A DNA stretch of 63,887 nt, counting the filler, from Reclinomonas americana ATCC 50394 (taxonomy: Eukaryota), in NCBI GenBank assembly GCA_048213135.1. It is 7 parts of 6 records of this genome, joined end to end, with 100 filler letters (N's around TTAATTAATTAA, not from the genome) between each part and the next. Parts side by side here need not be neighbours in the genome. Positions count along the whole stretch, not along the records: positions 7,805 to 22,377 come from PS015489.1; 6 more parts are not named here. One strand, given 5' to 3'. Shown in pieces: positions 7,705 to 38,774 of this stretch (position 1 is its first letter; the number at the start of each line of letters is the position of its first letter). Under the pieces are notes generated by a model that saw nothing but the letters and a program-made list of their open reading frames with translations, did not search any database and was not told the DNA's origin. The position numbers and the translations under genes were made by a program.

Positions 7705-7804
7705 NNNNNNNNNNNNNNNNNNNNNNNNNNNNNNNNNNNNNNNNNNNNTTAATTAATTAANNNNNNNNNNNNNNNNNNNNNNNNNNNNNNNNNNNNNNNN
7801 NNNN
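7705..7804. other. Artificial assembly spacer N44-TTAATTAATTAA-N44 (12-mer also at 22422, 45780, 48973, 55024, 62079)
   Basis: The identical 12-mer, with stops in all six frames, sits in the middle of N runs six times and interrupts genes. Confidence 0.97.
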
Positions 7805-7858
7805 TCTCTCTCTCTCTCTTCTTGTGCCCCTGCCTCACGCCTTTTTTTCCCACACCAG

Positions 7859-9303
7859 ATGTTCGCACGACCATTCGTCGGCGCACTGGCCGGCCACTCG
7901 GACGCCGTCTACTGCTGCACACGGCATCCGCGCGTGTTGTCGGCATTCATCTCGGGTGCTTGCGATGGAGGTCTCGTCGCGCGCCCTTGTTCTTCTTCTT
8001 TCTTTCGTCTCTCGGCATTGCTGACGCGCATGCAGAGATCCGCGTGTGGGACCTGGCGACGCAGCAATGCTTGTGGGCTGTTCCGCACGCGCACAATTCG
8101 TTTGTGCGCGGAGTGTGCGCGTCGCCAATGGACGACGTGATGCTGTCGTGCGGTGACGACGGTACCGTCAAGATATGGAGTCTGGATCTGTCCATGGCCG
8201 GTGGTGGGCCCGGGGCCACAAAGGTATGTGTGTCTGTCATACACACGCACCTGCAGGCGTGGCTTCTGACATCTCTTGGCAATCGCAGCCACGTGCGCTC
8301 TTCACCAGCGACGGGCCATTCCGTGCTATTGATCACTCGTTCGCAAACACCACGTTTGCCACGGCCGGTGATGGAGTGTGCGTGTGGGACGAGGTGCGAG
8401 CGGAACCTGTGCACCGCTACGAGTGGGGTGCTGACACGGTCATCAGCGGTGCGTCCTTTTTCTTCCTCCCTCCTCTCTCCCTCCTCCTTACTGTTTTGTG
8501 CTCGTCGGCAGTGCGCTACAATCCGTCGCAGACGGAGGTGGTGGCCAGCACGGCCATGGATCGCTCGGTGGTGCTGCACGATGTGCGCTCCAACACCTCC
8601 ATTCGCAAGTTCATTATGGATATGCGACCAAATACGGTGCGATGGAACCCGATGGAGCCCTTCTACTTTGTGGTGCCGAACGAGGATCACAACATGTACA
8701 TGTTCGACATGCGACGCCTCGATCGCGCCTCGCTCGTCTTCAAGGACCACGTGTCGGCGGTGTTGGACGTTGATTTCTCACCGACGGGTCTCGAGCTGGT
8801 CAGCGGCGCCTACGACCGCACTCTGCGTCTGTGGAACTTTAACGAAGGCCGCAGTCGCGACATCTATTTCACCAAGCGCATGCAGAGGTGAGTAGGAGAC
8901 AGAAGGAAGGAGACGGCAAGTGCCTGGTAGCTCACGTGTGCGTGCACGCAGATTGTTTTGCGTGGCCTTCAGCGGCGACGCCAACTACGTGGTGTCGGGC
9001 TCCGACGACATGAACCTGCGTCTGTGGAAAGCGCACGCCTCAGCGCCCGTGCACACCCTGCTGCCACGCGAGCGCACCAAGCTGAACTACGGCGACAAGC
9101 TGAAGCAGCGCTTCCAGTACGTGCCCGAACTTCGCCGCATCCTCAAACGTCGCATCCAGCCACGCTCCGTGCGCAAGGCCACCTTCACCAAGGAGACGAT
9201 GAAGAAGTCGCGACAGAGACGACTGGAGAACACCATCAAGAATCGTCGTGCCATTGTTGTGCGGCCAGAAAAGGCGCGTCCCATTCTTAGCATTGAGGAG
9301 TAG
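7859..9303 (+). CDS. DCAF13: DCAF13/SOF1 (WD40 + Sof1 domain; SSU processome), 5'-truncated
   Basis: MFARPFVGALAGHSDAVY, WNPMEPFYF..NEDHNMYMFDMRRL, DHVSAVLDVDFSPTG, SRDIYFTKRMQR, SGSDDMNLRLWKAHAS. Four GT-AG introns. Confidence 0.95.
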
Positions 9304-9312
9304 TAAAACGAA

Positions 9313-10317
9313 ATGAGCGACAAGGATGTGGAACGAAGACTCGCCTCATCCGCAGCTGCTGCTGCTGGAGGCAACTCATTCGGGTGTGTGTCTCATGTGC
9401 AGCTCCAAGTGTGCGCTCTCTGTGTGATGATGTTGACAAACACCTTCCCGCGCGCAGATGGTGGCTGGCAGTGGGTCTCGGCCTCGTCTCTGTAGTTGTC
9501 CTCGTGTACGGCCTCCTGCGACGCAGCAACCGCCCCAGTGGTGCACCAGTCGCCGCAGGAGGAGGAGGAGCAGGAGGCGCACAAGGAGCACAAGGAGCAC
9601 AGCCTGCGCGTGTGCAACTGATTCACGATGTGGATGACGACGATGACGAGGGCGATGTGAGTGATGAGGATGGTGTGCGCAGAGGCGGTGTGGCGGCACC
9701 TTTGGCTGGTCTGGGCGGTCGGTTGGTGGCGGCTGCGGGTGCGGCTGGTGCGCACAGCAGCGACGGATTGATGCCAGTCACGATTGATATGAGCAATGTG
9801 CGTCTATTTGCGTGTGTTGTTGTCTCGCCCCCCTTAGGCCGTGCGTGCGTGCGTGTTGATATATGCTGCTTCCAGTTGGTGTTGGAACGTACACGCGAGG
9901 GCCTGGAGATGATCCCCGAGTGCATTCCACCGCTGGCGCAACTGGTGATGAACTACAATGTGTTCCCGATTGCGGTGGTGCGATCGGATGCCGAGGAGGA
10001 CATGGTGCGTGCGTTGTATCAGTCGGCCGGTCTCTACGACTTGGGCTTGGACGAGAGAGTTGCGCGTGTCGATCCAGACATGAGCGCTATCCCCACCCGT
10101 TGCTGAGTGGTGTGTTGGCGTCTTGCAGAAGCTGCTGTTCTGCGAGACAAGTGTCGGAAAGCAGGCCATGGTGCGGCAGATTGAGCCGGCGATGCATCTG
10201 GAGAGCGAGGATGGTGTGGCGGAGGCACTGCGGCCACATATCCGGCGAGTGGCGCTGCTGCCGGCCAACAACCCGGCGGCACTGGTCAAGTTCGTGCAAC
10301 AGACCATGCGTGGATAG
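9313..10317 (+). CDS. PEX22: PEX22-like peroxisomal membrane anchor
   Basis: N-terminal TM segment WWLAVGLGLVSVVVLVYGLLRR. C-terminal KLLFCETSVGKQAMVRQIEPAMHLES resembles the PEX22 motif (vLFCsT..G+..fVRQlEP.wHid). Three introns. Confidence 0.75.
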
Positions 10318-10792
10318 AAAACGTCACCAGTGCAAAATACAGAGACAGGAGGCGATGTGTGCCTGCGTTGACCATGATGCCGCGTGCAATCGTACATTCA
10401 TTGCCGACGACAGACAACTCGGTGTCTGCACAAAAACATTTATACACACACAAACACACACAGATCCACTCTGTGTGACAGCTGAGGGGGGAGAAGAAAA
10501 ACACACAAACACACACAACACGGTACACCACACCCTTCTCCAGCATGCCAGTTGGCCATGCCGAGGGTGGGCAAAGCCGCAAAGTAAAAATACACCAAAC
10601 AACAAAAGACGCCTAAACACAAACACCCTACTCCTCTCGCCCTCGCACTGGCCAGCGCTGTCGGCTTCCCTCAACGCCAATGACAACAGTGCGAGCGAGA
10701 AAAAGAAAAGAAAACAAACAAGAACTATGCACAAAACAACAACAACAAAAAACAAACACAGAAAAACACTCTCTTTCTCTCTCTCTCTCTCT

Positions 10793-13700
10793 CTACGCGA
10801 CAATCTGGTCAAAGCCATAGATGAGCTTGAATCGCAGCTCATCCGACAACAGACGCATGTGCGTAAAGACAAAATTCAGCGAGCTGATGCTCATTGTAAA
10901 GTCCGCGTAACGCGTCCGGTGCACCGCCAGCTCCTCGACAGCCTCCGGCACAAATCGGTACCGCCGCTCGCCGGCCACCGCAGCAACAGCGGCTGCGGCG
11001 ACAGCAGCAGCAGCCACCAGACCTTTCGATGGGGAGGCCCCTGGTGTGCGGCGGTGTGGCACTGCACGGGCCACCATGGGTCGCGGGCTCACGCGCACGG
11101 CCGCCGACTTTTCGCTCGCCGACAGCGCACGTGTCGGCGTCACCGACCCGCTGACTGGCAGTTCGGCGGGGCTGTCGCATCGAGGCCGCGGCGGCATGCC
11201 GGCACCCTCGTCGTCATCGCCGCGGGATGGGAACGCCGCATCCACAGCATCGCTGGCTGCGTCGGCTTCGCTGTCGTCCTCGTCGAGATTGCTACATCGG
11301 TGACTGCGGTCGGTCAGGCTGCGGTCGGTGAGAGGCGACGAACTCTTCCGACCAATGTCCGTGTCAAAGTTCAAGAAGAAGACGGTCAGCGGTGACAGGT
11401 TGGCCGGCTGTTTGCAGGTGTCAGTTACGTGATGGGAAGGGAGGGCGAAGGGAGCTGCGACGCAACGTTAATGACTTCGATGTAGCCGTGCGGAACGTCG
11501 GGCGTGGGCGTCGGCTGCAAATGCAACTCCGAGGTCTCGTCGTCGGCCGTCGACGACCGCGCCGGACTCGGTGCATCGATCTGATCCAGACCCTCCACCG
11601 GGGCCCAAGGTGTGGTAGTGGCCGAGCGCGGTAATCTCCGCAGCGGCGACATGGAGACGGTGGTGTCACTGGGAGCGACGGTGGCGGGTGGTGCCTCGGC
11701 AATAATCTCGGTGAACGAGCGTCGCCGCAATCGATTGTGGCCTGCAAGAACGGTGAGCGAGAGCAAACAAACAGCATGACGGCTGTGTTGACTCACCCAT
11801 CAGAGCCCGCTGATACAAATCCTTGTGCTGGGAGATATCTTGCACAAGAATGTCACGCGCCGTGCGCAACACATGCTGCACGCTCTCCATGGCACTCGTT
11901 TTGCAGTAGAACCATAGTGGACCGTAGTTGGGATCGGCGTTGAGGCACATTTGCTCCAGCTGCACGCTGTCGCCGAGATTTCCGTCGCGCAGCAACTCCA
12001 GCCGCAACAACTCGATGAACGAGTCACCGTACTGCGGTGTGAACTTGATGGCAAAGCGCAGGTACGACTCGGCTGTGATCGAGGCAGGTGAGTAGCGTGC
12101 AACGCACAAACGGGATTCGCACACACGCACCTTTGCGCAGGTTGAACTTGGCGGAGAGTGGATTCATGCGTATGCGTGCACCTTCGCACCACACCTCGCC
12201 ACTCTTCGGCACCTCTTGCAGGGCCTGCTTGAACACGGTCCACTGGGCATCCTCGCCACCAATGTGCTTCAGGTGAATGAGGAGGGCCCACAGGCGACCC
12301 GTTGATGGATGGATCTGCGACACAAATGACTGCATGAGACAACCGAGAGAAGAGAGAGTGAATTGTGGGGAAAGGACACCAACCTGCAACGCTTCTTCGG
12401 TCTGCTTCAGGGCCGCTTGCAAATCATTCGAACGCATCGCCAGCATGATGGACTCGAGGAAAATCTGTGCACAGTTCAGTCAACCAGTGCAGACACGTGC
12501 TTCTCTCGCTGCTCACAAAGGCACCAACCTTCCACTCGTACCCCGACTCGTCCTTGCCGCAGCTGAGCATCGCCTCGGCCTCGCTGATGCGGTTGCAGTA
12601 TTCGTGCAGTCGGCTCCACTCAATGTACACACACGCCTTGGCCTTTTTCGGTGCATCCTTCAGTGCCTGCACCAACAACTCCTGCGCTCGTTGCTCGAAT
12701 CCAGCGCGTGTCTCGAGTCGTGCGCCTACGACAAACAAACACGAAGCGTGAGTGACATGCATCGCCAACAGTGCGCTCTCGACAACATGGTACGCAACCA
12801 GCAATCCATATTTTCCACTGCATGGTGGCCGGGCATTGTTCCAGGCTGCGCAAGTAGGCGTTCCGCGCCTCTTCCAAGCAACCCGCACGCTCCTCCACCT
12901 GCGCCGCCTCAAAGTACAACTTCCACACCAGTTCCTGCACATCGCCACTCGGTGAGTCGCAGAGAAAACAAAAGTCACCGTCGCCAACCCACACACACAC
13001 CTTGGAGACGTTGCTGGCGGCTCGAGCAACGGTACTGCGAATCTCTTGCAAGGCGGCCGCCAGTGGTCGGTGTTGCGACAGGCATCGCTTCTCCAGTAAC
13101 CGCAGGCGAGTGAACCACAGCGCCGCATACCGTGGAATCAACTCGAGTCCACGATCGCAGATGCGCATGGCGGCATCGCAATCCTCCTGTCGCTCCTCAA
13201 ACACCGTGGCTTCGTTGTACAGTGGACCCGACGGCACTACGTTGTGCAGTAGATACTGCATATGAAGACATTGGTGAGCAGACACATACGTACTGTGCGC
13301 GTGCGCTCGGACATACCCTAAATATTCTGCGCGCCATGGGCACGTCGCCGGCACGCGCCTCCATGTGTGCACCCTCAGCCCATACTCTCCAACACCGCTC
13401 GGCAGCCGAACGATCGAGTCGCGACAGAATGTGTCGGGCCACCGACAGCTGCTGGATTTGTTCCGCCACTCGCACACCCTTGATCAGCAGCGGTTCGACA
13501 TCCGAGCAATAGTCGAGAGCGGCAAGCATAAGTTTCTGCACGCATAGCGAGTGAGTGTGGGACTGTCGGCAGAGAAGCGCATCATCAAGAAGCGGTCGCA
13601 CTCACCAGGCATCGATGCATCTTGCCGCTCTCCTCCTCCACCTTGACGCGCTCCAGCCACACGCTGGCCTCGTATGGATTGTAGTTGCAGGTGCGGGCAA

Positions 13701-16230
13701 ACCACTGCCGCGCCTCCTTCTCCATGCCACGCTTCTTGGCTGCGTGTGCCACCTCCAGCGTCAACTTCCACAGCGCACTGGGGCTGAACTGCAGTCGATA
13801 TCGGTTCGCCAAGGCCACCACCGTGGTAAACGGTATGGAGTTGCTGTCTTCGTGCGAATCCTTGAGTTCTCTGCTGAACTCCTTGAACAAAATCTTGTCC
13901 TCGGCGGTCTCCACCGGCGGACCCGACGGCAGAACCGGAGCAGACGGCCACTGCACTTCATCGTACCCAACTGCAAAATAGGCAAAAGAAGTGAGCGCGC
14001 CCTTGACAGTGAAAGGGCAGAATTCTGGTACCACGCAACGAGAGGCAGGCATAGGAGACGGTGGCAAGAAGCTGGAGGACGCAGCCGACGAGTGACCGGG
14101 GCGTGATACTCTGTCCGAGCTCACGACGCCACTGCGAGAACGGATGTCAGTGAGAATCGGTGGCACGGTATGTGGGCGTGACAATCGATCGTACCTCTCA
14201 TCCGAGCTGGCACTGTCGACCACATCATCCAAGTCCGCATCGTCGACACTCGACATGGGCGACGCAGACTCGGTGGGACTCTCCGGCTCCGTGTGTGTCA
14301 AGAACGACGACAAGTCCGCTTGCAGTTGTGCTCGACTGTGGCCGGCATAGGGGTTGGCGACGAGCGAGTCTTCCGCGACCGCAGCAGCTGACGACACATC
14401 GTGGAAAGACGAGCCGGAATGCTGGCGCGAGTGAACTGGCGTGGAGGTCGGCGTTGTTGTTGTAGCACCGGCGGCCAGCGAGCCAGTCGAGGCTCCCTGT
14501 GTGCCCACTGTCGGCGGCGGCAATCCCGAGAACCCGCCGGTCATCATCTGATCGTAGCCAATCGCCGGATGCAACGACGGCGACAGTGGTGGAGGCAGGG
14601 AACTGGGAATGGCACCAACAAACGCACTACTGGCCGGGCTTTGCGGAGCCGAGTAGGGGGGAGCACGAGAAACGCCGCCACCGCCACCGCCACCACCACC
14701 AATAATGCCACCGACGCCACCGCCGTTGCCACCGCCTCCGCCGCCACCACCACTACCCAGTGCTCCTGGGCGATGCAGTTCAAAGGCAAACAGCGACGTC
14801 TCTGATGAGGCCGTCATTGGTGGCGAAGGTCCGTAGCCTGGCGGCTGTTGGAGACTGCGCGGTGCAATCAAGTCGCCAAACATGGTGGACGATGCCGACG
14901 AGGCAGCCGAGGGCGCCGTGGAGATGACGGTGGACAGCGAGTTGCCCGAGACCATGGACGACACCGACGAGGCCGAGGAGGACGAGGAGGTGAACGAGGT
15001 AGCCGACGACATCGAGGAGGCCAGGTACCTCTGCTGCTGCAGCTGTTGTTGCATCATCATCAATTGTTGCGGAGACGGCATGAGGGACGACTGCGCAGGA
15101 AGCTGCTGCTGCTGTTGCGGTGATGGTTGCGAGTACGCCGGCGGCGACATGGCGCCGGCATAGTAACGCGGTTGCGAGTACAAGGGTGGCATTGGGTACT
15201 GCGGCGGCGACATGGCTTGTTGTTGCTGCTGCTGTTGTTGCTGCAGAAGCGGAGTCGACTGCGGTGGCGATTGTGGTTGTGGTGGCATGTACGTCGATTG
15301 TGTGGCAGCTGGCTGGTAGGCCTGCTGGGCGTACTGGTGATGATGGTGGTGCTGGAGATGGTGATGCTGCTGCTGTTGCTGCTGTTGTTGTTGTTGTTGA
15401 TACGGGACCTGTTGAGGGGCCGCGGCTGGCGGAGCGACAGCGTATAGGGACATGGACGAAGAAGAGGAAGAAGATGGAGAGCCGGACGACGGGTGTCGCT
15501 GGCTGTGGTGCTGGTGGTGTGCGTGGTGATGCTGGTTGTGGTGGTGGCCGTGTAGGCGCTGCGGCGGTTGCTGCTGCTGTTGTTGTTGTTGCTGTTGTTG
15601 TTGTTGTTGTCGAGATGACGTCGGCGACGAGAGCATCTGCGAACTGCTCGCACGAGGTGGCCGTGCGCCCGGAGAGACCGGCGCCCCACCGGCCGCCAAA
15701 GCCATGGCCGACGGTACACTCGGCGGCAACTGGCCGTCGTCTGTGTATTCCAACTTGCGCACCGCCGGTGGTGCATACGACACCGCACCAGCGGCCGTCG
15801 CCACTGGCGAGGCCGACGAGTACGGCGACGGAGAGAAGTACGCCGCCGCCGCCGCCGCCGCTGCTGCTGCGGACGTGCCTGCAGTAGGCACGGCCACTGG
15901 CTGCGGCGCTGCGGCCACGGACGACGTGACAATGCTGGGCGGTGGTGACAGGATCGACGATAATGACGAAGGATCGCCGCCGCCGACGCCGGCACTCAAC
16001 GATCGCTGGTGGTGATGGTGATGATGGTGGTGATGATGGTGCACGACCACGTGCGCCGCCGCTCCACCAACTGCGCCCGCCGCTGTTGCCGCTCCTGCGG
16101 GCGCATAATCAATCATACTCCGATGCGCCGCCATGCGCGGCGGCGACGGTGGCGAGGACGGCGGCTGGGACATGGACGACGAGGAGGACGAGGATGGTGG
16201 CGATGGTGGCGCCAGCGACGAGGCGCGCAT
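10793..16230 (-). CDS. HAT/TPR-repeat protein with a long Q/H/S/P-rich N-terminal region
   Basis: Repeated HAT-like units (NPYEASVWLERVKVEE, WKLYFEAAQVEERAG, ALQEVPKSGEVWCEG, ADPNYGPLWFYCK) across many exons. Poly-Q/poly-H in the first long exon. Start codon uncertain. Confidence 0.75.
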
Positions 16231-16662
16231 ACTCGGAATGAATGGCCGCGCGTTTAGCTGCGAATAGCGATCGTCGGACAAAATGATCGAGAGCGATGGT
16301 GCGAAGAACGGAAAGAGAGAGAGGGCGAGGCGGAGAGAGCGACGCACGCGTGGGAGAGAGGGGAGAGAGCGCGCGTCCGCGTGCGCGATTTTGTGCGATA
16401 TCGATCTCACACAAGCTCAAACTGGCTCTCACTTTTACACTTGACGGCACACACACACACGTCATCGCCGATCGGAAACCACCGCGCACCCTCCATCGCT
16501 CACTCATTCACACACACACACACACTCACTCACTCACACACACCGATCGCTATGACGCGAAAAGAAGCAGAGGAAACAAAAAGTCGGCGGGAGAGAGCTG
16601 CGATCACATCTCGTACGAAAACACCACACACACACAAACCTCATTCACGCCCAAATATCCAT

Positions 16663-19600
16663 ATGATGCCGGCGATGACGGTGCCGCGGTGGTGTACACC
16701 ACGTGCCCTGGTGGCTGCCCAGGATCCATCACCTCCTCCGGTCGCTACTTCGTTCTATGTTTTCTGGGACAGTTGTCTGGTTGTCCGACTGCTCGCTGAC
16801 GTCGACTGTCCCGCGAAGGCGATCTGTGTAAATGGTGAGAAAGGGCATTGTGTGTGTGCGTGAGTGAGTATGCATCATAATGACAGCTTGTTTCAATAGG
16901 ATGTCAGAAGAGTTTCAACAGGAGCTAATGCGCAAGCTGTTGGATACCAAGGAAGCGATCGCGAGAAGACTCTTGTTTGATCACATGCGCGTGGTTGAGT
17001 CGCCAGCTGAGGTGCAGTCGGAGCTGTTGCATTGGCTGCAGTGTCGTGGTGGCTTGTACGGAGAGATTTGTGCCACGGTTTGCGCTCGCTCTGCTGTCAT
17101 TTTGGTGATGGGCGCGCACGACTGATCAGGTATGTCGTGCCAGCCGCGACTTGCTGAATGGTGCTCGGAGTTCTGCGGTGTCGGTGCTATCCTCGCCATT
17201 CATGATCGCGAGGATGCGGATGAATCGCTGCGCGACGCTCTTCTGCGGCCTCTCACGAAGAGGGGTGACGACTCTATCACCGACACGATCAATCGCCTGG
17301 ATGCACGCATGCCGTTTGTCACTGGCGTTTCGGGCATTGGCAAGACACGACAGGTGTTGCGGCTGTCGGAGATTGTGCAGCCAGAGGTGGATGCCATCGT
17401 CAGGCAAAGTTGTGTGGGGGGACGTGATTTCTTCTGTCCACTGCATCCGTACGCTGAACAGCTGTGTGGCTGCGCAGTTCCGGGAGAGCAGTTCACTGGA
17501 GCACGAGTGCTGCAGTTGTTCACTCGATTCGATCACGGCAAGGCGCTTACCTCGCGTGAGAAGACCGCGGAGCGTGGATACGACTTTAGCCACGTGTTGG
17601 CGTTGCGTGCGCTTCACGCTTATTTTGCACGGCGCCAGTGCTACCATGAGTTCGTGGAAGCCGTGCACGCCAAGCAGCGTCGCTTTGCGCTCGTCGACCT
17701 GCGAGACGCTCTCACTGTCATTGCGAGTGATTATCGTCGTCGATTTCCTGACCGCGTCGACGAAAGAAGGTGTGTCAGACTCGCCACCACACCAGTTACC
17801 AGGGCAGTGCTGTACCCACAGTAATTCTTGTCGCAGCTGTCTGGTGGTCTGCTTTGCCATTGACGAGGTGCAGCAGCTCTGGATCAAGGGTGCCGAGTCG
17901 GACGATGCTGCTCGGAGTCAGATTCGAGCCGTCACCAGCGCACTCCGTGGTGTGATGATGAGTGCTCCCGCTGGCCTCCGTCTTCTGCCCGTGCTCAGCG
18001 GCAAGACATATGGCGACATGCGACTGCGGATGTGTGACAGCGGTGCCATGTTGCAAATGACTATTCCGCTGCGCCTCCTCCAGTCACAGTCGGTGGAGCA
18101 CATTCTCACTGAACTGATTGCGACAATGTCGGTGGGGAGTGACTGGGGTCGCAAAGACATCCCAGAAGGTTTGTGGGTTCAGCGCCGCGCTGCGATGCAT
18201 TGGTAGTTTGTGAGAACTCATCACCGAGTCCCCCGTTGTGGAGATCTCCGAGGGCGAGTTGTCGAGCAGCTGAGATGCTGGCGCCAGTCAAGCATGTTTC
18301 TGTGGTACCTGCGAATGGTCGGGTGGCATCCTCGTGCTCTCGCCATGTTTTTGGATGGTGTTCTTGGTGAGAAGGGTGATGCATATGCATGCGTTACATT
18401 TAGACCTTTTGTTGTTCACATGCCATGCAGACGCCCTGGTGACGAGACTGAGGAGAGATGTGGAGGCAGAACACCCGCCGATGTTGCTGCTGCACCTGGA
18501 CTGGCCAGCGGTTGCCGAGCGCGGCTTTGATTGGTTGCCTTCGGCTGTAGACATACAACCGGGCATTTTGAGGGACTCGCTCTGTGGTCGACTGGTGGAG
18601 GTGACGCCTGTGTTGCAGCACCTTGAGGCAGAAGGGATTTTGCACTTGCAGCCTGTGAGTTGCCATGATGATGACTCCGGCAGTGATGCACTTGGAAGCT
18701 CTTCTGTCGAGGTATGTGGTGGGATCCTGGAAGCACGCCTTGTTGTGGTTAGCCGCTGAGTCCGCCGAGTTCTCGCGATCGTCAGCGTGCGAGCATCCAT
18801 GTTCCGTTAGTCCTTCTTCGAGGAGGTTCTCCTGCGTGCTATCAGGCCCGATACGTGGTCGAGTGTGCCACGGAATACTTGACCATTGCAGAAAAGCGGC
18901 GCGTTGAGGTGGAGCTGCGTGTGTCCTCTGGTGCTGATGAGAAGGATGAAAAGGTGAAAAGTGTGCCTTTCTGCAGACCGTCGGTTTCCCTTCTCAATCT
19001 GTGTGCAGGGGCGCGCGTTTGAACGTACGACTGCCCTTTTCCTGCAGCTGCTGCTCCTCGTGCGAGGCGAGTCGGGCGTGGTCAGTTCATGTCGCGTGCG
19101 TGACTTAGTGTTTGGGCTCGGTCAGCGGCCGGAGACGCCAATGTCGGCAATACAAGAGCGGTGGCTGCAGCGCACGGTGGAGATTCCTGCTCTTACTGCT
19201 CGAACGTGTACTGAGCTGGCTTCCGTGCGCAAGCTGAATGTCTCTGAGGTAATGTTAACGCCCTGCTGTATCGCGGAAGCTGTTTCTCATCCCCCGAGTG
19301 GAGCAGTGGTTCGCTGGGGACTCTGACGATGAAGTGCTGCACGATGATGTAGATTACATGGTTGCGTGCTGTTTCAACGCGACTGCCTTGGACACCGTGT
19401 TGACTCCTCTTCTCTACAGCGTTTTCGTTGTGACGAGCGTTCCCAGTGCGTGTTTCTACCAGTTGACGGAGCGCAGGCCGCAGATGCGCTCCTGATGCTT
19501 CGCTTGACCCATGCGGACACCACAGGTCAGTAAGTGCGGTGTGTCTTCGTGTTCTCGCGCACGTTCTGCGGTCTCACTTTGTTGCCACACAGACTGTTCG

Positions 19601-20256
19601 CATATGCTCGTGGTTGTGCAGGCCATGGCGCAACATGCTGTGGATCGTCGGGCCGTTGACAAGTATGTTGGAGAAGTGGTACGTTCCAACGAGTAGCCGT
19701 CTCGCTCGTGTTACCACCTCACATGTGCTCCAGAACGATCTCCACCGTCGGCTGGAAATATACAGAGTATTCGTTGTCGGGCTTCTGATCGCAACCCAGC
19801 GAGTGGTGCTACGTATACCGCCGTCTGCTTTCTTGGACTACACCGTGGTGATGAATTGCAAGACGAAGAATAGCTTCTTTGGCCCACGTTTTGATGGACT
19901 CATGCAACCACTCGGTAATAATTCGTTGTGGCGTGCTATTCATGATAATGACTCATTGTTTTGCATTCGCCGGCCGAGCAGGTTCCGTCAACGTGAACTC
20001 TTGCAGCTCGGCGCTGCTGGCCAGCCTGATCTGCGCTTGCGAGTTGAAGCCGACGAATGCGGCCGCCATGGAGCTGGCCCAAGCCATCGTCAGTCATCGT
20101 GGATGGGAAGGCTACCAGTCTCGAGATGACTTCAAGGCTGCGTGTCAGAAGGAAGGAGATCTTGCTGCACTTCTCATGGGAGTCGATGAAGAACGATTCG
20201 AGGTGTTCGTCGACGGCCTGCGTTTTGGCTTGTGCGCTGCTGCTGGTAGTTCCTGA
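16663..20256 (+). CDS. Crinkler/RHS-type protein: divergent P-loop NTPase + PD-(D/E)xK REase-fold + C-terminal HhH-like domain
   Basis: Walker A GVSGIGKT (17324-17347), Walker B VCFAIDEVQ, GWHPRAL motif, GRAFE helix, FLPVDGAQAADALL..VVVQAM, FFGPRF, then VNVNSCSSALLASL..ELAQAIVSHR..YQSRDDF. 5' exon structure uncertain. Confidence 0.7.
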
Positions 20257-20625
20257 GCCACTGTCATTGCCAGACAGCGGTCAGTGCTTCACTATCCTCG
20301 TCGTTTCCGTGATGTCTCAGTTTCTGGTGCTCACTCAAAATGGTGATTATCACGCAGCTGCCTTGCTGTTTGGATTAGTAAACTTGTTGTTGTTGGTGGT
20401 GGTGGTGCTGAAGAAATCGCTTGGACAGGATTACAGAGGAGATTCATCTTGCGAACTGACGTTCTCAACAAAATGAGTACCCTGCAGCATCAAATGAACA
20501 GCCTTGAGTTTGCAGCCATGCGTCTCTGCTCTTCAAGTGGTGATCGACAAGTCAACATTATTACGCATGGGCTCTTGCTCAGAACCCCCACATCAGTAAC
20601 TTCCTCTAATCCCCTCCCCTCCCTT

Positions 20626-22177
20626 CTACCGCCTGGCCAACACAGCGCACATATTCCCCGCCCCCTTCGACGCATCGGCAAACTCCGCAGTGCTCTCGGC
20701 GCCAATGAACCGATACGAGAGGAAGTGCGGAATGCCGCCCTGATGCTGCACCTCGACGTGCTTGAAGCCGTGCGACTTCAACAGCTGCTGGATCTCCTCC
20801 AGTCGGCCGCCCTCGTCGTGCACCTCGATCGCCACCTGATGGATCCGCGACCAATGATCGTCACGAATGCCGCGCAGCACGTGCAACTCCGCCTTCTCCA
20901 CGTCGATCTTCAGCAGGTCGATGTGCGCAATACCCTGCTCGTCCATCATGTCGGAGAGCGTGCGCAGCGGAGCCTCCACCTCGCGGGTGACAAAGTTGGC
21001 GGCGACTGCGTGGCGCAACAGCCAGTGGCGGGCGAATTGCGGGAGGAGGGCGTACAGGTACCACGGACTGATGCCGAGTTCCCGAGCCACCAGCTGGCGG
21101 TGACCCAAGTGGCGCGACTCCACTTGCGAGAGGAAGTCGGTCATGGTGGCTTGCTCGACAGTCCACCCGAAGGAGGAGGAGCACGACAGGAGGGTGTAGT
21201 TCGGCAGGTAGCTGCGGGTAAGGGAGATGATGGAGAAGGGTGAGGAGAGGGGGAAGGGTGAGACAACAAAGCGCTGCTATTCTTTGCTAAAACAGCGACA
21301 GCATTCTGGCTGCGCCACACAAACAGGATACAAGGTGTTCTCTGCTTTCCATCTCTCACAAGCTCAGTCTGGCATGCAGCTCGCCTCTTGGGGCAGCACG
21401 GATCGCTACTTCATCTCTGTGTCTCTCAAGTGCTCTTGTCTTCTCTCGTTTCCCACTCGGTTTCTCTCAGCAGACACAGGAATCCCTTCACAGGCATGCA
21501 CTGCATGCCGCCCGACCACAAGCTCACCTGAACGTCATCGAGGAGGTCTCGTCGGAGAGGCCCATATTGTAGCAGTGCACACGCTTCGACTTGCACAGCT
21601 CCGCGTTGCGTTGCAGCGCACGAAACACGTGCGGAATCGGCTCGAACGCATGCAACTCCACATCACCACGACACTCCTCGTCGCAGAACGCCATGAACAC
21701 GCCTGTTCCCATATGAATGATATCAGTGCGTGCATGCAAGTAAGGAAAAACATTCTGTTGTGCGCTCACCGATATTCCCGCCCACATCGACGATCACATC
21801 ACCCGGCTTCACACGCAGACCAGCCTGCACATACGATCGCCGCTCAAAGATGTCTTCGCACAGGAAACGAGCCTCGTCGGCATTGACAACAGCCAGCTCC
21901 TTGCGAATCTGCAACCGGAGTCAATGTCGCGCTCACACTTCACACACAGTCGGCAAACACCAACCGTTGTCCCCCGCAATGCAACAGTGGCAACGGCCGA
22001 GCTCGACGAGGCACCAGCACGGCGTCTTCTGCGCACATACAACGCCCAAGGCACCAACACTGAGCATTGACAATCGTAAGAGAGGGCGAGCGCGAACGAT
22101 CGACGAGAGAGGCGCAAGACGAGTACCGAGCAATGCCCACAGCACACTGGCCAGAGCCACAACGCTCACGGCTTGCA
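20626..22177 (-). CDS. FkbM-family SAM-dependent methyltransferase with an N-terminal hydrophobic segment, multi-exon, start uncertain
   Basis: VIVDVGGNIG, LHAFEPIP, YNMGLSD..MTFSYLPNYTLLS, LRTLSD, IDLLKIDVEKAELHVLRGI..WSRIHQVAIEVHD. Confidence 0.9.
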
Positions 22178-22477
22178 TGCAAAGAGAGAAACAGTGTGCA
22201 GAAAATTCCGCACACACTCTTTGTTGTCTCTGTCGCAATGTGGAGAGTTGCTGGTGGCGCCGAGGAAGGCGGTGACGATGAGGCAGCACTGCTCACCGCA
22301 CCGCCTGCGCAGTCAGTTGCAGAGCCGGCAGTAGGCAAGGCCAGCTCATATCGCACAAGCGGTCAGTCACACACACGNNNNNNNNNNNNNNNNNNNNNNN
22401 NNNNNNNNNNNNNNNNNNNNNTTAATTAATTAANNNNNNNNNNNNNNNNNNNNNNNNNNNNNNNNNNNNNNNNNNNN

Positions 22478-29200: not shown

Positions 29201-31227
29201 GTGGTGCCCAGCAATTCGCACCGACTGATATGGGAGCGCGTTCGCGTGCGATGGGTTGGGGCGCCGACTCGCTGGAGGCTCGCCGTCGTCCAGGCGCGGA
29301 GGATTTCGCTGCGGGTGCACACGCTGGCGACGTGGTGGAGCTGGAGGCGGAGCCTGAGGTGGCGCCGAGCGAGTTTATGCGACCGCCTGCGGAGCAGTCG
29401 CCGAGGTTGAAGAAGAAGAAGGTGGTGAAGAAGAAGAAGGTGGCCAAGCAGGACGATCAGCTTCTCATGCAGCGTGTGGGAGCACCGGTGAGTGATGTGT
29501 GTGCTTCCCGCTTTTTTTCTCTCTCACAGCTGTGGTGGAGATCACTTACGTTCTCTCTTCTTGTGCAGCGCGAACGCCATCATGGAGAAGAGGAACCGTC
29601 GTTGGCCATGGAGGAGTTCGACGATGGTGAGCCTGTGGCAGCAGCAGAAGAGTCGTCCTTGGTCATGGTGGACGATGACGACGGAGAGGACGACGCGGCA
29701 CTGCGGGAAACCAGTGTGGCCGCACGCTCTTCTGGGCGTCCCGGCGGTCGACTGTCGCGCGGCAGTCCACCATCATCGCAGCGTGCCGGCGATATGTACG
29801 ACGAGGATGTCGAGCTGGTGGCGCCGTCGTCGGCACCGAAACAGTTTGCGGCTGGCGAAGCTCCGCGCATGCCCGCATTCACCGCAGTGCGCGCTCAGCC
29901 GGCTCCTCGTCGCGACATGCTCGGTCAGCGAGCCGACGGCCCCAAGGCCGTCACTGTCACGTTGCGTCCCTCCTTCTCACATCTTAGCGAAAGTCCCTTC
30001 TATTCAGTCGCTCACATCCTCTCCCTCCAGGCGGTACCGCACCGATCCGCGGCAGCCATCGCGCTCACCCGAACCGCGCGGTCACGAGGACGACGAAGAA
30101 GAGGAGTTTGCCGTGGAGCATGTGCCGGCGCGAGCGCCGGGTGGACGACCCACACGAGGCAACCGACCGGCGCCACCGCGTCGTCTCAACGACGACGACG
30201 ACGACGACGATGGAGTGGGTCGTGTGCGCGAGGTCGATCTCAGCATGTTTGGCCAGCGCACAAACTCGAACACGACCGCCAGCCCGGCCGCCATGCCGTC
30301 GCCTGCCGAAAACCCATTCGCGCGACGGTCGGCGGTGGACGACGACGACGACGAGTTCGAGCAGCAGCTGCCCGACAGTTCACGTGCTGCGGGCGCTCGA
30401 CCAGCGTCGGTGAGTCAGTTGTTGTCATTTGACCTTCTTCCTGTCGATGCTTACACGTGCGCACACGCAGGCTGGTGTCTCACGCGATCTGGGTGCCGAC
30501 GGGCGTCGTGGTCGGCGCGTTGGGCTTGGCGCACCGACACGCGAAGCCAGTGTGTACGACGCCACCAACGACGAGCTGGTGTCCGGCGGCAGAACGGCAG
30601 AGGCTTCTCCACCGCGACAGCGGCAGAGGAAGGACGCAGACTTTAGTGATGGCGAAGGAGATGGTGAGTGGGAGGTCGTGCATCAAGTGAGTTTCTGTGC
30701 GCGACACCAGACTCACAAGGCTGCTGTTGTGGTGTGACGCAGAATCACCGCTCGGCGCACAACCAGTGGGCATTGTCATTGAGCCACCACCACCCGGCCC
30801 ACGTGCGTCTCTTTGTCACTCTCTCTCTCTCTCTCTCTCCACACATGTGCCTACTCACTCCATTCATCTTCATGGCGCAGGTCTCCCCGCCGGCTCATCG
30901 AAATCCGCCGCACCCTCACCACCCAACGACCCCGCCGCCAAGAAGCTCTTGTACCAGACGAAAGAGCTGTTGGCCGCCGACGAAACGGAGCTGGGCGGTC
31001 GCGATGGCAAAGCCGACTTCCTCATGGCGTACTCGCGTCGCTGGCGCACGATCATCAAGCGGTGGGTGACGCAGTTCTCGCAGGAAACGGGCCACAAGCC
31101 AAGCGCTCGTGAAAAACGCCTCATCAAGCCGTGGATCCTGGCCTACCGTTCCATCAAGCAGTCACTGGCTGCACTAGGCGATGGAGACGCAGAAGCCGAC
31201 GGCGACGAGGAGGAGGATGTGGAGTAA
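26274..31227 (+). CDS. Large coiled-coil/low-complexity protein with a C-terminal FAM13-like helical motif
   Basis: Spliceable from ATG 26274. E/A/R/Q coiled coil at about 27470-28030. C-terminal IKRWVTQFSQETGHKPSAREKRLIKPWILAYRSIKQSL. Confidence 0.65.
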
Positions 31228-31291
31228 TAGTTTATGTAAAGTGGAAAACCGATTGTTTACGGCTTGCTTTTTGTCACATCACAAAATCACA

Positions 31292-34158
31292 ATGTTGTTC
31301 GACGAGTATGGTGGGTGCCGCTTGTCTTGCGTTAGATCGTGCACGTGGCGAGTGAGTCAGTGAGAGTCAGTGTGTATGTGTAAGAGAGGCAAAAGGTGAC
31401 AGGGGTGTTTCTGGGAGTTGTCGCGCGCGTGACATGTCCACACTGCGCAACTCTCTCTCTCTCTGTCTTGTGCGTGAATGCATGAGTGTCAGTGCAGTGT
31501 GTGTGCATGCGGGGATACCCACTCATACGCACACACACGACGAGGAGAGGAGGAGGAGGAGAGAGAGAGGAAGGAGATCTCACACACGCGCGTGTTTGCG
31601 CGCGCTCACTCTGCCCACTCTTGCCCCCGTGTGCACTCTTGCCAGTGAGACAGCAACTCACTTGTGCACTCCTTGTGTGTTGCATGGTGAACACGCGAGA
31701 GAAGTGGGCGAGTTGTCGCGCGTGTGTGTGTGTTTGCGCATTTCCTCACTCGCCTCTCTCACGCACTCGCAGGCCGCCCCTTCATCATTCTGCGCGAGCA
31801 GGGTCAAAAGAAGCGCCTTCGAGGCATCGATGCCATGAAGGTGCGACAGGAAAGAAACACACAAGAGCATTTTGCAGTTGTCGCTCACTCACTCTCTCTC
31901 GTTCTCTTGCTCACTCACAGGCCAACATCCACGCTGCCACCACGCTGACCAATGTGATGGTGAGTGTTGCTCTGTTGATTGCTCTTTGTGCGCACAGTGG
32001 TCTCATACGTGTGTTTCCCAATCACAGCGCACTTCTCTTGGCCCCAAGGGTCGGTCCACATCTCAACTCCTTCGCGTCTGTGTTTCGCGTCGTCGACTCA
32101 TGCGTGCTGTGTATATGTGTGTTACAGGCATGGACAAGATGCTCATCAGCGGCGACGGCGATGTGACTGTCACCAATGACGGTGCCACCATTCTGAAGGA
32201 GATGCACGTCGAGGTGAGCGCCGCGCCCCCTTTCTTCATCTTCGTGTCTCGCCTTGTCGTCTCCTCACCGCGTGCTTGTTGCGTCGCAGAACGAGATTGC
32301 CCGACTGTTGGTGGAGCTGTCGGCCAGCCAGGATATGGAGATTGGGTGCGTGTTTTTCTCATTTCAAAAAGCGTGAGACCACCTGAGAGAGAGAGAGAGA
32401 GAGTGAGTGAGAGAGTGGTACTTTGAGGAAGGAGGGGGGGAGTGAGGTCATCGTTGCAGCATCTTTCTCATCCTTTCTCTCACCTCTTCTCTCCCTCTCC
32501 TCTTCTTCTCTTCCAATCACTTCTCTCTACTCCTCTCCACCACCGTTGCTCATGCAATCTCATCGCCAGTGACGGCACGACGGGTGTCGTTGTGTTGGCC
32601 GGTGCCTTGTTGAAGGAGGCAGAGAAGCTGCTGGATCGTGGCATTCACCCCATCCGCATTGCCGACGGTTTCCACCGCGCATCTGAGGTGGCCGTGGCGT
32701 ACCTCGAGGTCTGTCATCTCTCTCCCCGCCCTCCCCTCCCCTCCCCACTCTGACTCCCTTCTCCCTCACAGAGCATCAGCGACCGCGTCGACTTCTCACA
32801 AGACCACATTGAGCCGCTGGTGGAGACGGCACGAACAACGCTCTCGTCCAAGATCGTCAACCGCTTCTCGCAGACGCTGGCCGAGATCTGCGTGAACGCC
32901 GTGCTGTCGGTGGCCGACCTGGAGCGCAAGGACGTGAACCTGGATCTCATCAAGCTGGAGGGCAAGGAGGGTGGCCGCCTGGAGGACACGCAGCTGGTCT
33001 ACGGCATTGTGGTCGACAAGGACATGTCGCACCCGCAAATGCCCAAGATCATCCGCGACGCCCGCATTGCCATCCTCACGTCGCCGTTTGAGCCGCCAAA
33101 GCCCAAGACCAAGCACCACGTGGAGATTGACTCGGTGGAGAAGTACCAGCAGCTGTACGAGACGGAGCAGGCGTACTTTGAGCAGCAGGTCAAGCTGTGC
33201 AAGGACGCCGGTGCCAATCTCGTGCTCTGCCAGTGGGGTTTCGACGATGAGGCCAACTCGCTGCTGCTGCAGCGCGAGCTGCCGGCCGTACGATGGGTCG
33301 GCGGTGTGGAGATGGAGGTGAGCGGATACGAATGGGGGTTGGGGAGGAGGAGAGGGGAGAGCACGTTTCTCACTCTTGTCTGTGTCTGTTTGCAGTTGAT
33401 TGCCATCGCCACCAATGGCCGCATTGTGCCGCGCTTCTCCGAGTTGAGCCCGGAGAAGCTTGGCAAGGCTGGTCTGGTGCGCGAGATGCAGTTTGGCACC
33501 ACCAAGGACCGCATGATCTTCATCGAGGAGTGTGCCAACTCCAAGGCCGTCACCATTTTCGTGCGCGGCGGCAACAAGATGCTGGTGGAGGAGGCGAAGC
33601 GCTCGATTCACGATGCGCTGTGTGTGGTGCGCAACTTGGTGCGCGACAACCGCATTGTGTACGGTGGTGGTTCCGCCGAGATTGCATGTGGTCTGGCAGT
33701 GGCAGCCGCCGCCGATCAGGTGAGCCTACAGAACGGTAGATAAGTGTCGCCGATCTCTTCTCACACACTTTTCTTTTTATCACTCCAGACATCGGCGATT
33801 GAGCAGTACGCGATGCGTGCCTTTGCCGATGCGCTCGACACGGTGCCGGTGGCGCTGGCGGAGAACAGTGGCTTGCACGCGATCAACGCCGTGACGGAGA
33901 TCAAGGCAAGGCAAATGGCGGAGAAGAACCCGCGACTTGGCATTGACTGCATGTCGACGGGTCAACCGGGTTTGTTTTTTTGCCTTTTGCTCGTGTCTTT
34001 CGCACATTCGTGACTGCTCACCGCGTGTCGGCGCAGACATGAAGCTGCAGGGTGTGTTCGAGACGCTGAAGGGCAAGCAGCAGCAGCTGCGATTGTCCAC
34101 ACAGGTGGTGCGCATGATCCTCAAGATCGACGACATCATCACTCCCTCGGACTACTAA
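31292..34158 (+). CDS. CCT5: Chaperonin CCT/TRiC epsilon subunit
   Basis: [80 protein letters not shown]. Confidence 0.97.
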
Positions 34159-35447: not shown

Positions 35448-35758
35448 CGTGCACAGTCAGCGCACACAGGGAGAGAGCGAAGTGTGTGCGTGAGAGAGTG
35501 AGGTTGTCAGTCAAACCTTGCCAACTGCAAAGTCGCCGACGACAACCACCTGTGTGCGTTGCGCCATCCCAAGTCAGTCACACATGGTCACTGCGCACAA
35601 GGATACACACAAAGCACGCGGAGTGCGTCTCCGAAGTGTGCGACCATGGCCAACACCACGCGATGTCTCTCACGCACACAGGTACACACACACAGGCGCA
35701 ATGAACAGACCTTGAAGAAGTCCTTGTTGCGCCCATCACTAGTACCACCACGCATCAT
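34390..35758 (-). CDS. Rab GTPase, Rab32/38/29-like
   Basis: FK|VVVVGDFAVGK|TS, YKITI|GVDF, LQLWDVAGHEKYG, GAFVVFDMTR, KPIPMILLANK|SD, W|YKTSAKTGLNV, and C-terminal EKKGCC* prenylation motif. Confidence 0.9.
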
Positions 35759-35827
35759 CGTCACAACACAGCCGCAAAAACACAAACACAAACGAAAACG
35801 CGGCAATTTCAATTAACAATCACTTTG

Positions 35828-38774
35828 ATGAGCGGGGAAGCAGCGGAGAGTGTTCTCGTGCGGCCGACGCTCGTGCAACGCGGCTCGAGCAGTGCGAGCA
35901 CGGGGAATGTGCCGGCGCCGCGATTTGAGACGACGGCAGGGATGGGTTACCCGTTCCCGCCACCCTCCAACCCGTGGGATGAGTCGTTGCCGCGCGGGGC
36001 GTCGGTGCCGCCGCGAATGGCGGGAATGGGCACGCATGCGCCGCAGCAGACGTTGTTTGAGTTGGCGCAGTGGATGGCGCGCAGAGATGTGTGGGAGATG
36101 ACGAGGAAGAAGAGTGGTGAGTCGACGCAACAGCAACAGCCGCAACCAGTGACACCAGCGACAACAGGTAAGCAACGTACACAGCGTGTGAGTGACACGC
36201 TGGACTGATGTGGTTCGTGTGACAGAACCGGTGAAGCCGGTGGTGCGATCGGTGGGGAAGCGAAGTGCGGCGGCGGCGGTCGATGCGCAGGTGATGGGAG
36301 TGGGCGCGGTGGGGCAGACGGTGCCGCTGGTGAAGCCGGTGTCGAGGCCGCGTGTGGCGCATGGATCGGCACGGGAGCGCGATGAGGAGTGGTTGAAGAG
36401 GGATTCTGCGTCGGTGGCGGGTGTGCGGCCGGTGGAGGTGTTGCCGCCACCACTACCGCCGCAGTCGAGACCTACGCCACCAACAGTGGCTGTGGATGCG
36501 GCGGCGGTAGCAGCGGCGGTGGTGCAGTCGCCTCCTGAGGCGTCGACGCTGACGCAGGGTGGACTGGAGGTGGTGTTGCGCGAGGACTATGAGAAGCTGC
36601 GTCGTGTGCAGCAGGAGCAGGAGCGACAGGCCAAGGCGTTGAGTGCGGCGTTGAAGCGCGAGATGCACCGATCGCAGAAGCAGGCCGATGCGTTGCGATC
36701 GGTGGCACGCACGGGTGGTGTGGTGGTGGCACCTGGGGCATCGTCGTCGGTGCGTTCGTCGGTGGCCGCGGCAGTGACGACGATGCCTAGCGGCTTGCAA
36801 TCGCCACCGGAACGCGGTCCACCGTCCGATCAGCACGCCATGATCCCCGACGAGAACGCGTTTCGTGCCGTGCTCGGCAACATGCTCCAGCAGCGCCACA
36901 TGCGACATCAGCAGTCGCACCCACACGACGCTGGTGCACGGCCGCCGTTGCATCCAGCACAGTGGCGAACTGGCTTGTTGACAGTCGATTTGCGCGACTA
37001 CGATCGCACTGGTGTGATTTACACGGGTGGTACGGGCAAGGAGCGACGACGTGGAGCAGGCGCAGCTGTGTCGTCGTCGCGACAACAGCACACGCCACGC
37101 GGATATCACCCAGACGACGAAGTGGAGGTGAGGGGCGCTGTTTTGTTTTTGTGCTGCTTGTCGCCATTCTCATGGTTTACGTGATGCGAACGACAACAGC
37201 ACGGATCACCGCGTTCCTACCTCGAGGAACCCGAAGGACACCCCCCACAATCCGCGGCAGAGGCACGAGACGGATCGCCACTGCAGTACGCGTTCAGCAC
37301 TCGGGAGTACGTGGATTTGCGGGACCACAGCCGCTTGCAGTCGACAGGCGACGTCAGCAAGGAGGGCGTGTTTGCGTTCGAGTCACACGACGTGGTGGAT
37401 TGGAGGTCTCGTACTCACTGTCTCCACCGCCGATGCGTCCCCTCCTCACTTCCTTTCTGTGATCGCGTGCAGAAGGCGACCGGCGCGTGGATCAGCTGTG
37501 CTGCCGCCGTCTGCAGGTGGCCACCGGCCACCTGCGTCACTGGCTGCGACACGAGTGAGTGGCACCGGAAGTCTGCGGTCGTCGGCCACTGCGCTGGCCG
37601 AGATTGCTGCCATGGAGAGCCGTGTGCAGCCGCTGATTGCGCGTGCCGAGGTTTGCTCTTTTTTCCTGCCTTGTCAGCCACGTACTTGGCACTGATCGTC
37701 TCGTGTGCAGGAGGTGCTGCGCAGCATCAGCATCGATCCGGCAGCGCCACCGGCCAGCTCCTCTTCGTCGTCTTCCTCGTCTCCACCCGTGGAGAAGGTG
37801 TCAAAGGCCACGTCGCCAGCGGTGGTGCCGCGCTCCACCAGCAGCGTTGCGACCTCGCCCAGTTGCGCGAGGGAGAATGTCGTGTTTTTCAATGACAACA
37901 ATTTACTGAGGAATGTTGACTGCGTGCAGTCGGTTCCCGTCAACCCTCCCGTCAGCGTGCAGTGGCCAATGTCGTGGCCGCCCTCGGTGGCATGGAGTAC
38001 GTGCAGTCGCCGCAGTGCATGGGTCAACTCCTCAACTCTCTCGTCGACGACTTGGTCGAGGTGTGTGTTTACATTGAAGATAAGAGTGCGTGCTCTTTGA
38101 TTCACCGCACACGTGAGCAGGACACGTTGCTGGAGGTACACCGGGTGGAGACGATGAGCGCCAAGGAGGCACGCGACCAGGACGCATTCCATCGTGTCGA
38201 TGGCCTCCTCGATTTTCTCGATGCCGTGGAGCGCGCCGAGGATGCAGCGCGTGCTGACTTGGAGGCAAGACATCGACTGGACGAGTCGCCCTCACCAAGA
38301 GGTGCAATGGACAACGACGACGACGACGACGACGGAGAGTATGATGGCAGCGACAATCCGCCGCAACTTTATGGTGGTGATGGTGGTGGTGGCAGTGGCG
38401 GTGCCGCTGGTGGTGATGGCAGTCGTGTACAGTGGGTGCCTGGTGCACGCGCGCGGCACGTGTGCGATGTACCACCTGCATTATTGCAGGCGATTCGACG
38501 ACAGTTGCAAGCCTTCAACTTGTTGCGTTTCTCTGTTGTGCTCCATCTCCGGCAATCAGGTCGATGCCAACCTTTCCACTTCGTGTGCAGGCACCTGGAG
38601 AGCACCGTCGGCACCGCCAGCGTGAAGCCGTGGGATGTAATGGACTTCCTCACCGACGAACTGCTGGAGGATTTGATGAACGATGTGGCGGGTGAAATGG
38701 TGGATGCGTGCGACGACTATGTGCGGCAGATGGTGGATGCCGAGTTGCAGGGCGATGATGACAGCGCGTCATGA
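35828..38774 (+). CDS. Moonraker/KIAA0753-like centriolar protein
   Basis: C-terminal VPPALLQAIRRQLQAF..RHLESTVGTASVKPWDVMDFLTDELLEDLMNDVAGEMVDACDDYVRQMVDAEL resembles the moonraker C-terminal domain as recalled. The rest is coiled-coil or low complexity. Confidence 0.6.

Follow-up and report, generated by a model that had tools for sequence, protein, structure and literature searches.

The DCAF13 and PEX22-like genes of Reclinomonas americana ATCC 50394, which lie on the same strand with nine base-pairs between them, are best explained as two separate monocistronic transcription units that overlap slightly in a locally very compact genome (probability roughly 0.65). An earlier note on this DNA had left two options, namely that one mRNA carries both ORFs or that the two transcripts overlap. 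Overlap is favoured and bicistrony disfavoured here, because a hexamer typical of 3' ends in this genome sits on the DCAF13 stop codon. The supporting argument that nine bases are too short for a poly(A) signal does not hold, since the TAG-TAA double stop itself contains AGTAAA, which is a 3'-end motif in this genome and the mapped signal of Giardia.

The DCAF13-PEX22 junction

The junction was read directly from the window, by which we mean the whole 63,887-nucleotide stretch of DNA that was analysed. The codons run GAG (9295), GAG (9298), TAG (9301-9303), TAA (9304-9306), AAC, GAA and ATG (9313-9315). This reading upholds the earlier description of a 9-bp distance between the DCAF13 stop and the PEX22-like start on the same strand, and of a double stop followed by an in-frame ATG at 9313. 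The features of the locus, all on the plus strand, are as follows.

7859..9303, plus strand: DCAF13/Sof1 gene (Pfam Sof1 and WD40, homologs, open exon model)
7859-7970, 8036-8223, 8289-8448, 8512-8887 and 8952-9303, plus strand: DCAF13 exons (the 5' exons fall in an assembly gap)
9240..9312, plus strand: putative PEX22 transcription start and 5' UTR within the last DCAF13 codons
9301..9303, plus strand: DCAF13 stop codon TAG (sequence and homolog end position)
9302..9307, plus strand: AGTAAA hexamer overlapping the DCAF13 stop, candidate poly(A) signal (3'-end enrichment)
9304..9312, plus strand: inter-ORF spacer of 9 bp (sequence; both ORFs in one frame)
9313..10317, plus strand: PEX22-like gene, 260 aa (exons 9313-9383, 9458-9797, 9876-10058 and 10129-10317)
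10583..10588, plus strand: second AGTAAA, about 266 bases past the PEX22 stop, candidate PEX22 poly(A) signal

The upstream gene has the two features that define the DCAF13/Sof1 family, which are WD40 repeats and a C-terminal Sof1 domain, the latter found by profile search on 8953-9300 (E=9.5e-19). Its five exons are joined by four GT-AG introns of 63-65 nt and the frame is open throughout, while about 52 N-terminal residues fall in an assembly gap of 1,251 N. Homologs were counted as full-length if they had 420-480 aa and an initial Met, which applied to 70 of 120 among the matches listed. The C-terminus of DCAF13 lies at the same alignment column in 60 of these 70, and TAG 9301-9303 is therefore taken to be the true end of the protein.

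The PEX22-like exon model has no internal stop and likewise encodes both expected parts of the protein. These are an N-terminal membrane anchor, represented by the one hydrophobic segment at residues 26-44 (the next Met is residue 129), and a C-terminal HAD-like Pex22 domain, for which HAD_Pex22 (PF22978) matches the last exon (E=9.9e-9, 35.6 bits vs a cut-off of 27). A family search with exon 3 alone gave no match, an Atlas search with the protein gave no usable match, and none of 56 candidates scored as a PEX22 homolog with which the N-terminus could be checked. A 3,800-aa DUF5801 repeat protein, the single match among representatives, was rejected as spurious.

The junction lies inside one contig, with window positions 7805-22377 corresponding to G000:C481:136275-150847. 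Positions 7705-7804 and the other N runs of the window carry a central TTAATTAA-type linker where separate contigs are stitched together, and a WD40-like gene left of 7704 was rejected as a neighbour of DCAF13 since the two stand on separate contigs joined at this filler. DCAF13 and PEX22 each have one match in the assembly, and an assembly search for a second haplotype of the locus found none. Many genes in loci L105-L134 have a second copy at ~93-96% identity, with some pairs at 78-89%, and these copies are either paralogs or, if the genome is heterozygous, haplotigs. Two 2-Mb contigs of the assembly, C1 and C2 (L018 and L019), are of unrelated base composition and are probably bacterial.

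A hexamer at 3' ends

Gene models were produced by a self-training gene finder run on 107 gap-free pieces totalling 726 kb (the window and contigs C481, C482, C12, C20 and C10), which yielded 332 genes, with about six introns each, and 2,038 introns of median length 68 nt. These models are ab initio, and DCAF13 and PEX22 were among the seeds of the finder, so that the recovery of both is not independent. The commonest donor hexamer in the predicted introns is GTTGCG (383 of 2,038). AGTAAA, which matches the Giardia signal, was noticed in a list of spacers and in a k-mer screen, and the motif was thus picked after the data had been viewed.

AGTRAA starts within -5 to +30 of the stop in 34 of 215 predicted genes, compared with 3 on the antisense strand and with 13.2 +/- 3.3 (maximum 26) in 1,000 shuffles that kept the stop and the composition. 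Its density is 4.7e-3 per base near stops vs 1.1e-4 in introns and 8e-5 in coding sequence, which is a per-position excess of ~40-fold and ~55-fold, respectively. It is also the leading hexamer at these ends, with 39 occurrences against 7 for AATAAA within -5 to +40 of the 215 stops. Overlap with the stop codon itself is seen for AGTRAA in 19 of the 215 genes, for WGTRAA in 23 and for AATAAA in 2, and TAG is followed by TRAA at 4 of 38 TAG stops, including that of DCAF13.

AATGAA, AATAAA and ATTRAA are likewise enriched at 3' ends. A wider family, A[AGT]T[AG]AA, was defined after single-base variants had been seen, and marks 72 of the 215 ends (antisense 13; shuffles 30 +/- 5). Thus ~1/3 of ends carry the wider family and ~1/6 carry AGTRAA, with most ends being without the latter. 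Only 4 of 90 divergent starts are preceded by the wider family, which therefore belongs to 3' ends and is not a promoter element. Convergent ends carry it in 15 of 42 and 18 of 74 cases. Among tandem pairs it is present at 13 of 19 with spacers of <=100 bp vs 11 of 36 wider ones, a contrast that has p=0.019 without the DCAF13-PEX22 locus, although the stops of tight pairs may just be better predicted. Between 7805 and 10800 the family occurs only twice, at 9302 and 10583, once after each gene.

An independent set was assembled from 22 of 30 Ras-family loci (8 were omitted as overlaps or second copies, and some twins remained). AGTRAA is present at 3 of 23 ends in this small set of little power, with two of the three being haplotype twins, and at 0 on the antisense strand. 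No AGTAAA occurs in 433 kb of coding sequence, where T|AA codon junctions are generally scarce (0.16 of expectation, which in predicted coding sequence is below the 0.29-0.41 of other T|A junctions), and AGTGAA is not depleted there (AGT-GAA 15 vs 11.9 expected). Depletion of the hexamer in introns was rejected as specific evidence, as the sense strand of introns is generally poor in A-rich hexamers. TAAA and TGTAA were rejected as signals, being no more frequent than in shuffles, and an AG preceding a TRA stop was not significantly linked to an A following it (p=0.38).

On the favoured reading, each gene would have its own cap and poly(A) tail, and the stretch shared by the two transcripts would be a few tens of bases long. 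The hexamer at 9302-9307 would act as a 'dual-use' stop and poly(A) signal for DCAF13, with cleavage predicted ~10-25 nt past the stop, at or just within the first PEX22 codons. A candidate explanation for the second in-frame stop (TAA) is that AGTAAA spans TAG-TAA. The PEX22 mRNA would end beyond the AGTAAA at 10583. Some transcripts probably read through both ORFs on occasion, which would be incidental.

Overlap of this kind needs a promoter within DCAF13, and transcription of PEX22 would start inside the last DCAF13 exon. Three features were evaluated as possible signatures of such promoters. A CATT initiator was found at 13 of 55 tightly packed starts vs 11.8 in dinucleotide shuffles, and was dropped: it is present at 46 sense vs 19 antisense of 166, but at 52 vs 40.5 in shuffles of 196. 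Relaxed codon usage in the DCAF13 tail (low GC3) is gone after amino-acid correction (rank 59 of 202). TGTCC, often as TGTCCT and also reversed, is found at -60 to -17 of 30 of 190 starts vs 7 further upstream and is a candidate core-promoter motif. It is absent before PEX22, where only the unenriched variant CGTCC is present.

Gene spacing and alternative readings

Spacing was counted for neighbours with >=300 coding bases each. Same-strand gaps measure 9, 19, 36, 54, 55, 57, 59, 60, 64 bp and up (n=55, median 203), whereas in these predicted models divergent gaps begin at 38 bp (n=45) and convergent gaps at 1 bp (n=58). The earlier note had proposed a genome-wide histogram of same-strand distances. 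In the 726-kb sample, 9 bp is the tightest of the 55 values, yet it stands at the tail of a continuum, and the spacing is the extreme of genome-wide compactness with no separate class. Individual spacing values are uncertain because a predicted 13-bp tandem pair in L109/L110 proved to be a finder error, the upstream Rab ending earlier at its CC motif. Only 55 of 158 neighbouring pairs are on the same strand (103 are on opposite strands), which is under half (p=1.7e-4). Same-strand runs comprise 166 single genes, 31 doubles and 10 longer runs, the longest being 4 within the gap-bounded pieces.

Some convergent stops are predicted just 1-11 bp apart. Divergent pairs are 72, 38 and 63 bp apart at window 35756-35828, C20:131625 and C482:64229, and pairs of 38-73 bp indicate that promoters are tiny in this genome. 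CCT5 (window 31227-31292) starts 64 bp past the stop codon of its upstream neighbour on the same strand, and its N-terminus is conserved relative to homologs. The closest CCT5 among the matches listed is that of the jakobid Seculamonas ecuadoriensis, at 80% over the full length vs <=76% for the other 119 and at 85% over one exon. From this single marker, compared without a tree, the genome is probably that of a jakobid and hence of a member of Discoba.

The foremost alternative is that one mRNA carries both ORFs and that ribosomes, once they have terminated on DCAF13, re-initiate at 9313 with the aid of the short A-rich spacer. We consider this unlikely, even though the spacing is the tightest of 55 tandem pairs and no PEX22 promoter signature survived controls (CATT, TGTCC, GC3). 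The 9-bp fungal spacer IGG6 permits re-initiation past a full-length ORF (PMC10352335), and 80S re-initiation can be induced in yeast (PMC11952965). IGG6 resembles this junction in that nine bases separate a full-length ORF from a second start. Unlike the present junction, however, IGG6 is engineered with the upstream terminator displaced, and the tight pairs here have no shared spacer class.

A re-initiation bicistron predicts no signal upstream, yet the upstream stop carries a candidate 3'-end hexamer, a motif that is enriched rather than depleted in tight pairs. The hexamer family is also found at convergent ends (15 of 42), where nothing re-initiates. Spacers of <=120 bp exhibit no frame preference (8, 8, 5), and the distribution of spacer lengths has no gap. 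DCAF13 belongs to ribosome assembly and PEX22 to peroxisomes, and the two proteins are not known to act in a common pathway, which was counted against a bicistron.

Green-algal bicistrons are similar in joining two unrelated spliced ORFs that are close together on the same strand (PMC7896298, PMC11291117). The upstream genes of green-algal polycistrons are described as lacking a poly(A) signal (PMC7896298). DCAF13, by contrast, carries a candidate hexamer on its stop, and the enrichment of the hexamer in tight pairs here is the opposite of what is reported for those algal genes. Algal ORF1s are moreover short and AUG-depleted, whereas the DCAF13 ORF has ~450 codons and at least 20 ATG, with 20 present in the 1,188 spliced bases. 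This count agrees with the earlier characterization of DCAF13 as AUG-rich. A leaky-scanning bicistron, which needs AUG depletion before ORF2 (PMC11291117), was accordingly rejected, as the earlier note had expected.

There is nevertheless a small chance that weak use of the stop-overlapping AGURAA yields a stable two-ORF mRNA on which ribosomes re-initiating past a 450-codon ORF make PEX22, and that other very tight pairs (19 bp) behave likewise. Such an mRNA would, if true, be a natural case of long-ORF re-initiation without trans-splicing in a jakobid relative of the polycistronic euglenozoans. A true re-initiation bicistron would show how polycistronic expression can come about close to the root of the lineage leading to trypanosomes.

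It is improbable that PEX22 starts elsewhere, either at ATG 9326 with a donor at 9397 or from an upstream non-coding exon, in which case nine base-pairs would be an irrelevant distance. ATG 9313 had been described as the only in-frame ATG ahead of the membrane anchor. That statement holds under the exon model given above, but the weaker donor at 9397 would permit ATG 9326, which with a 61-nt intron is also in frame into the membrane exon. Donor 9397 scores below donor 9384 (5th vs 14th percentile of donor scores), the first ATG met by a scanning ribosome is 9313, and the alternative start would leave a gap of just 22 bp.

Still less probable is a polycistronic precursor of the euglenozoan kind, which spliced-leader trans-splicing would resolve into monocistronic mRNAs. 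Probable membership in Discoba is consistent with this possibility, and so is the AG at 9268, which resembles an acceptor and scores at the 36th percentile of those predicted. However, a good acceptor is present ahead of 15 of 55 tightly packed starts and in 46 of 116 control windows, which gives no enrichment, and 7 of the 55 have no AG within 50 bases. One precursor could not give both mRNAs in any case, because acceptor 9268 falls within DCAF13 coding sequence. The same-strand runs are short (longest 4) and do not form long clusters of the euglenozoan type, and a preprint puts jakobids at ~2 genes per directon (bioRxiv 10.64898/2026.07.29.740908).

Least probable of all is a DCAF13-PEX22 fusion protein, made when both stops are read through or removed by splicing, for although the ORFs share one frame and DCAF13 intron 4 and PEX22 intron 1 are of equal phase, such that joining donor 8888 to acceptor 9457 is in frame, two consecutive stops separate the ORFs, DCAF13 terminates at the end position of its homologs, introns >300 nt make up 3.5% of those predicted, and an alternative donor at 9300 was rejected on its score (the GT is in the lowest 0.1%, and its hexamer begins 0 of 2,038 predicted introns).

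Comparison with other compact genomes

In Giardia and Spironucleus, WGURAA serves as a dual-use stop and poly(A) signal (PMC9014877, PMC11529991, PMC3916229). AGURAA is the mapped signal of Giardia and lies mostly 13-15 nt from the cleavage site (PMC9014877). Stop-overlapping signals are found in 7-18% of Giardia genes vs 1-2%, with a median 3' UTR of 11 nt, whereas the Naegleria equivalents with AAUAAA have a median 3' UTR of 22 nt (PMC11529991). WGURAA is reported to be restricted to metamonads, with AAUAAA used in Naegleria (PMC11529991).

The genome studied here is like that of Giardia in that AGTRAA ranks ahead of AATAAA at 3' ends and overlaps ~9% of stops, including the TAG-TAA-A layout. 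Unlike the Giardia signal, the candidate signal of R. americana is predicted from DNA, and it occurs in an intron-rich, free-living probable jakobid in which the Fip1 and CFIm25 families are present. AATGAA, AATAAA and ATTRAA are enriched here too, and coding sequence shows no depletion of AGTGAA. We tentatively propose, at somewhat below even odds, that a Giardia-type AGURAA poly(A) signal may have arisen outside the metamonads.

In the jakobid Andalucia godoyi, 47 close pairs have overlapping untranslated transcript parts, with spacers of 44-691 nt and 9 pairs on the same strand (PMC7050145). Both genomes have spacers of tens of bases and neighbours that are mostly on opposite strands (38 of 47 in Andalucia; 103 of 158 here). 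They differ in that the shortest spacer quoted for Andalucia is 44 nt and its genome is intron-poor, as opposed to about six introns per gene here. Encephalitozoon cuniculi is similar in having control signals pressed against or into neighbouring coding sequence, and read-through from weak poly(A) recognition (PMC2803860). It is, however, a parasite with a reduced genome of 2.9 Mb and AAUAAA signals, in contrast to the large, intron-rich genome studied here.

The DCAF13-PEX22 junction is best filed as an extreme case of the compact-genome overlap known from protists, including another jakobid. A literature search of partial coverage returned no paper that deals with poly(A) signals in jakobids, with their spliced leaders or with the DCAF13-PEX22 pair. 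The genome-wide AGTRAA signature is a more interesting lead than the junction, since WGURAA has been described as restricted to metamonads. It suggests that a Giardia- or metamonad-type poly(A) signal may serve a member of Discoba, in an intron-rich, free-living cell, and such use would bear on the evolution of AAUAAA recognition.

Several other tight pairs were observed in the gene models. TPR and DUF255 (thioredoxin-like) genes are predicted 19 bp apart at L047:6600-6620 (C12:36601-36619, minus strand), with AGTGAA immediately past the stop. In two haplotypes (L133:1800-1834 and L134:1803-1839), the spacers between a Rab-like and a signal-peptide-like gene measure 33 and 35 bp, and this twin pair has AGTAAA in one copy and ATTAAA in the other.
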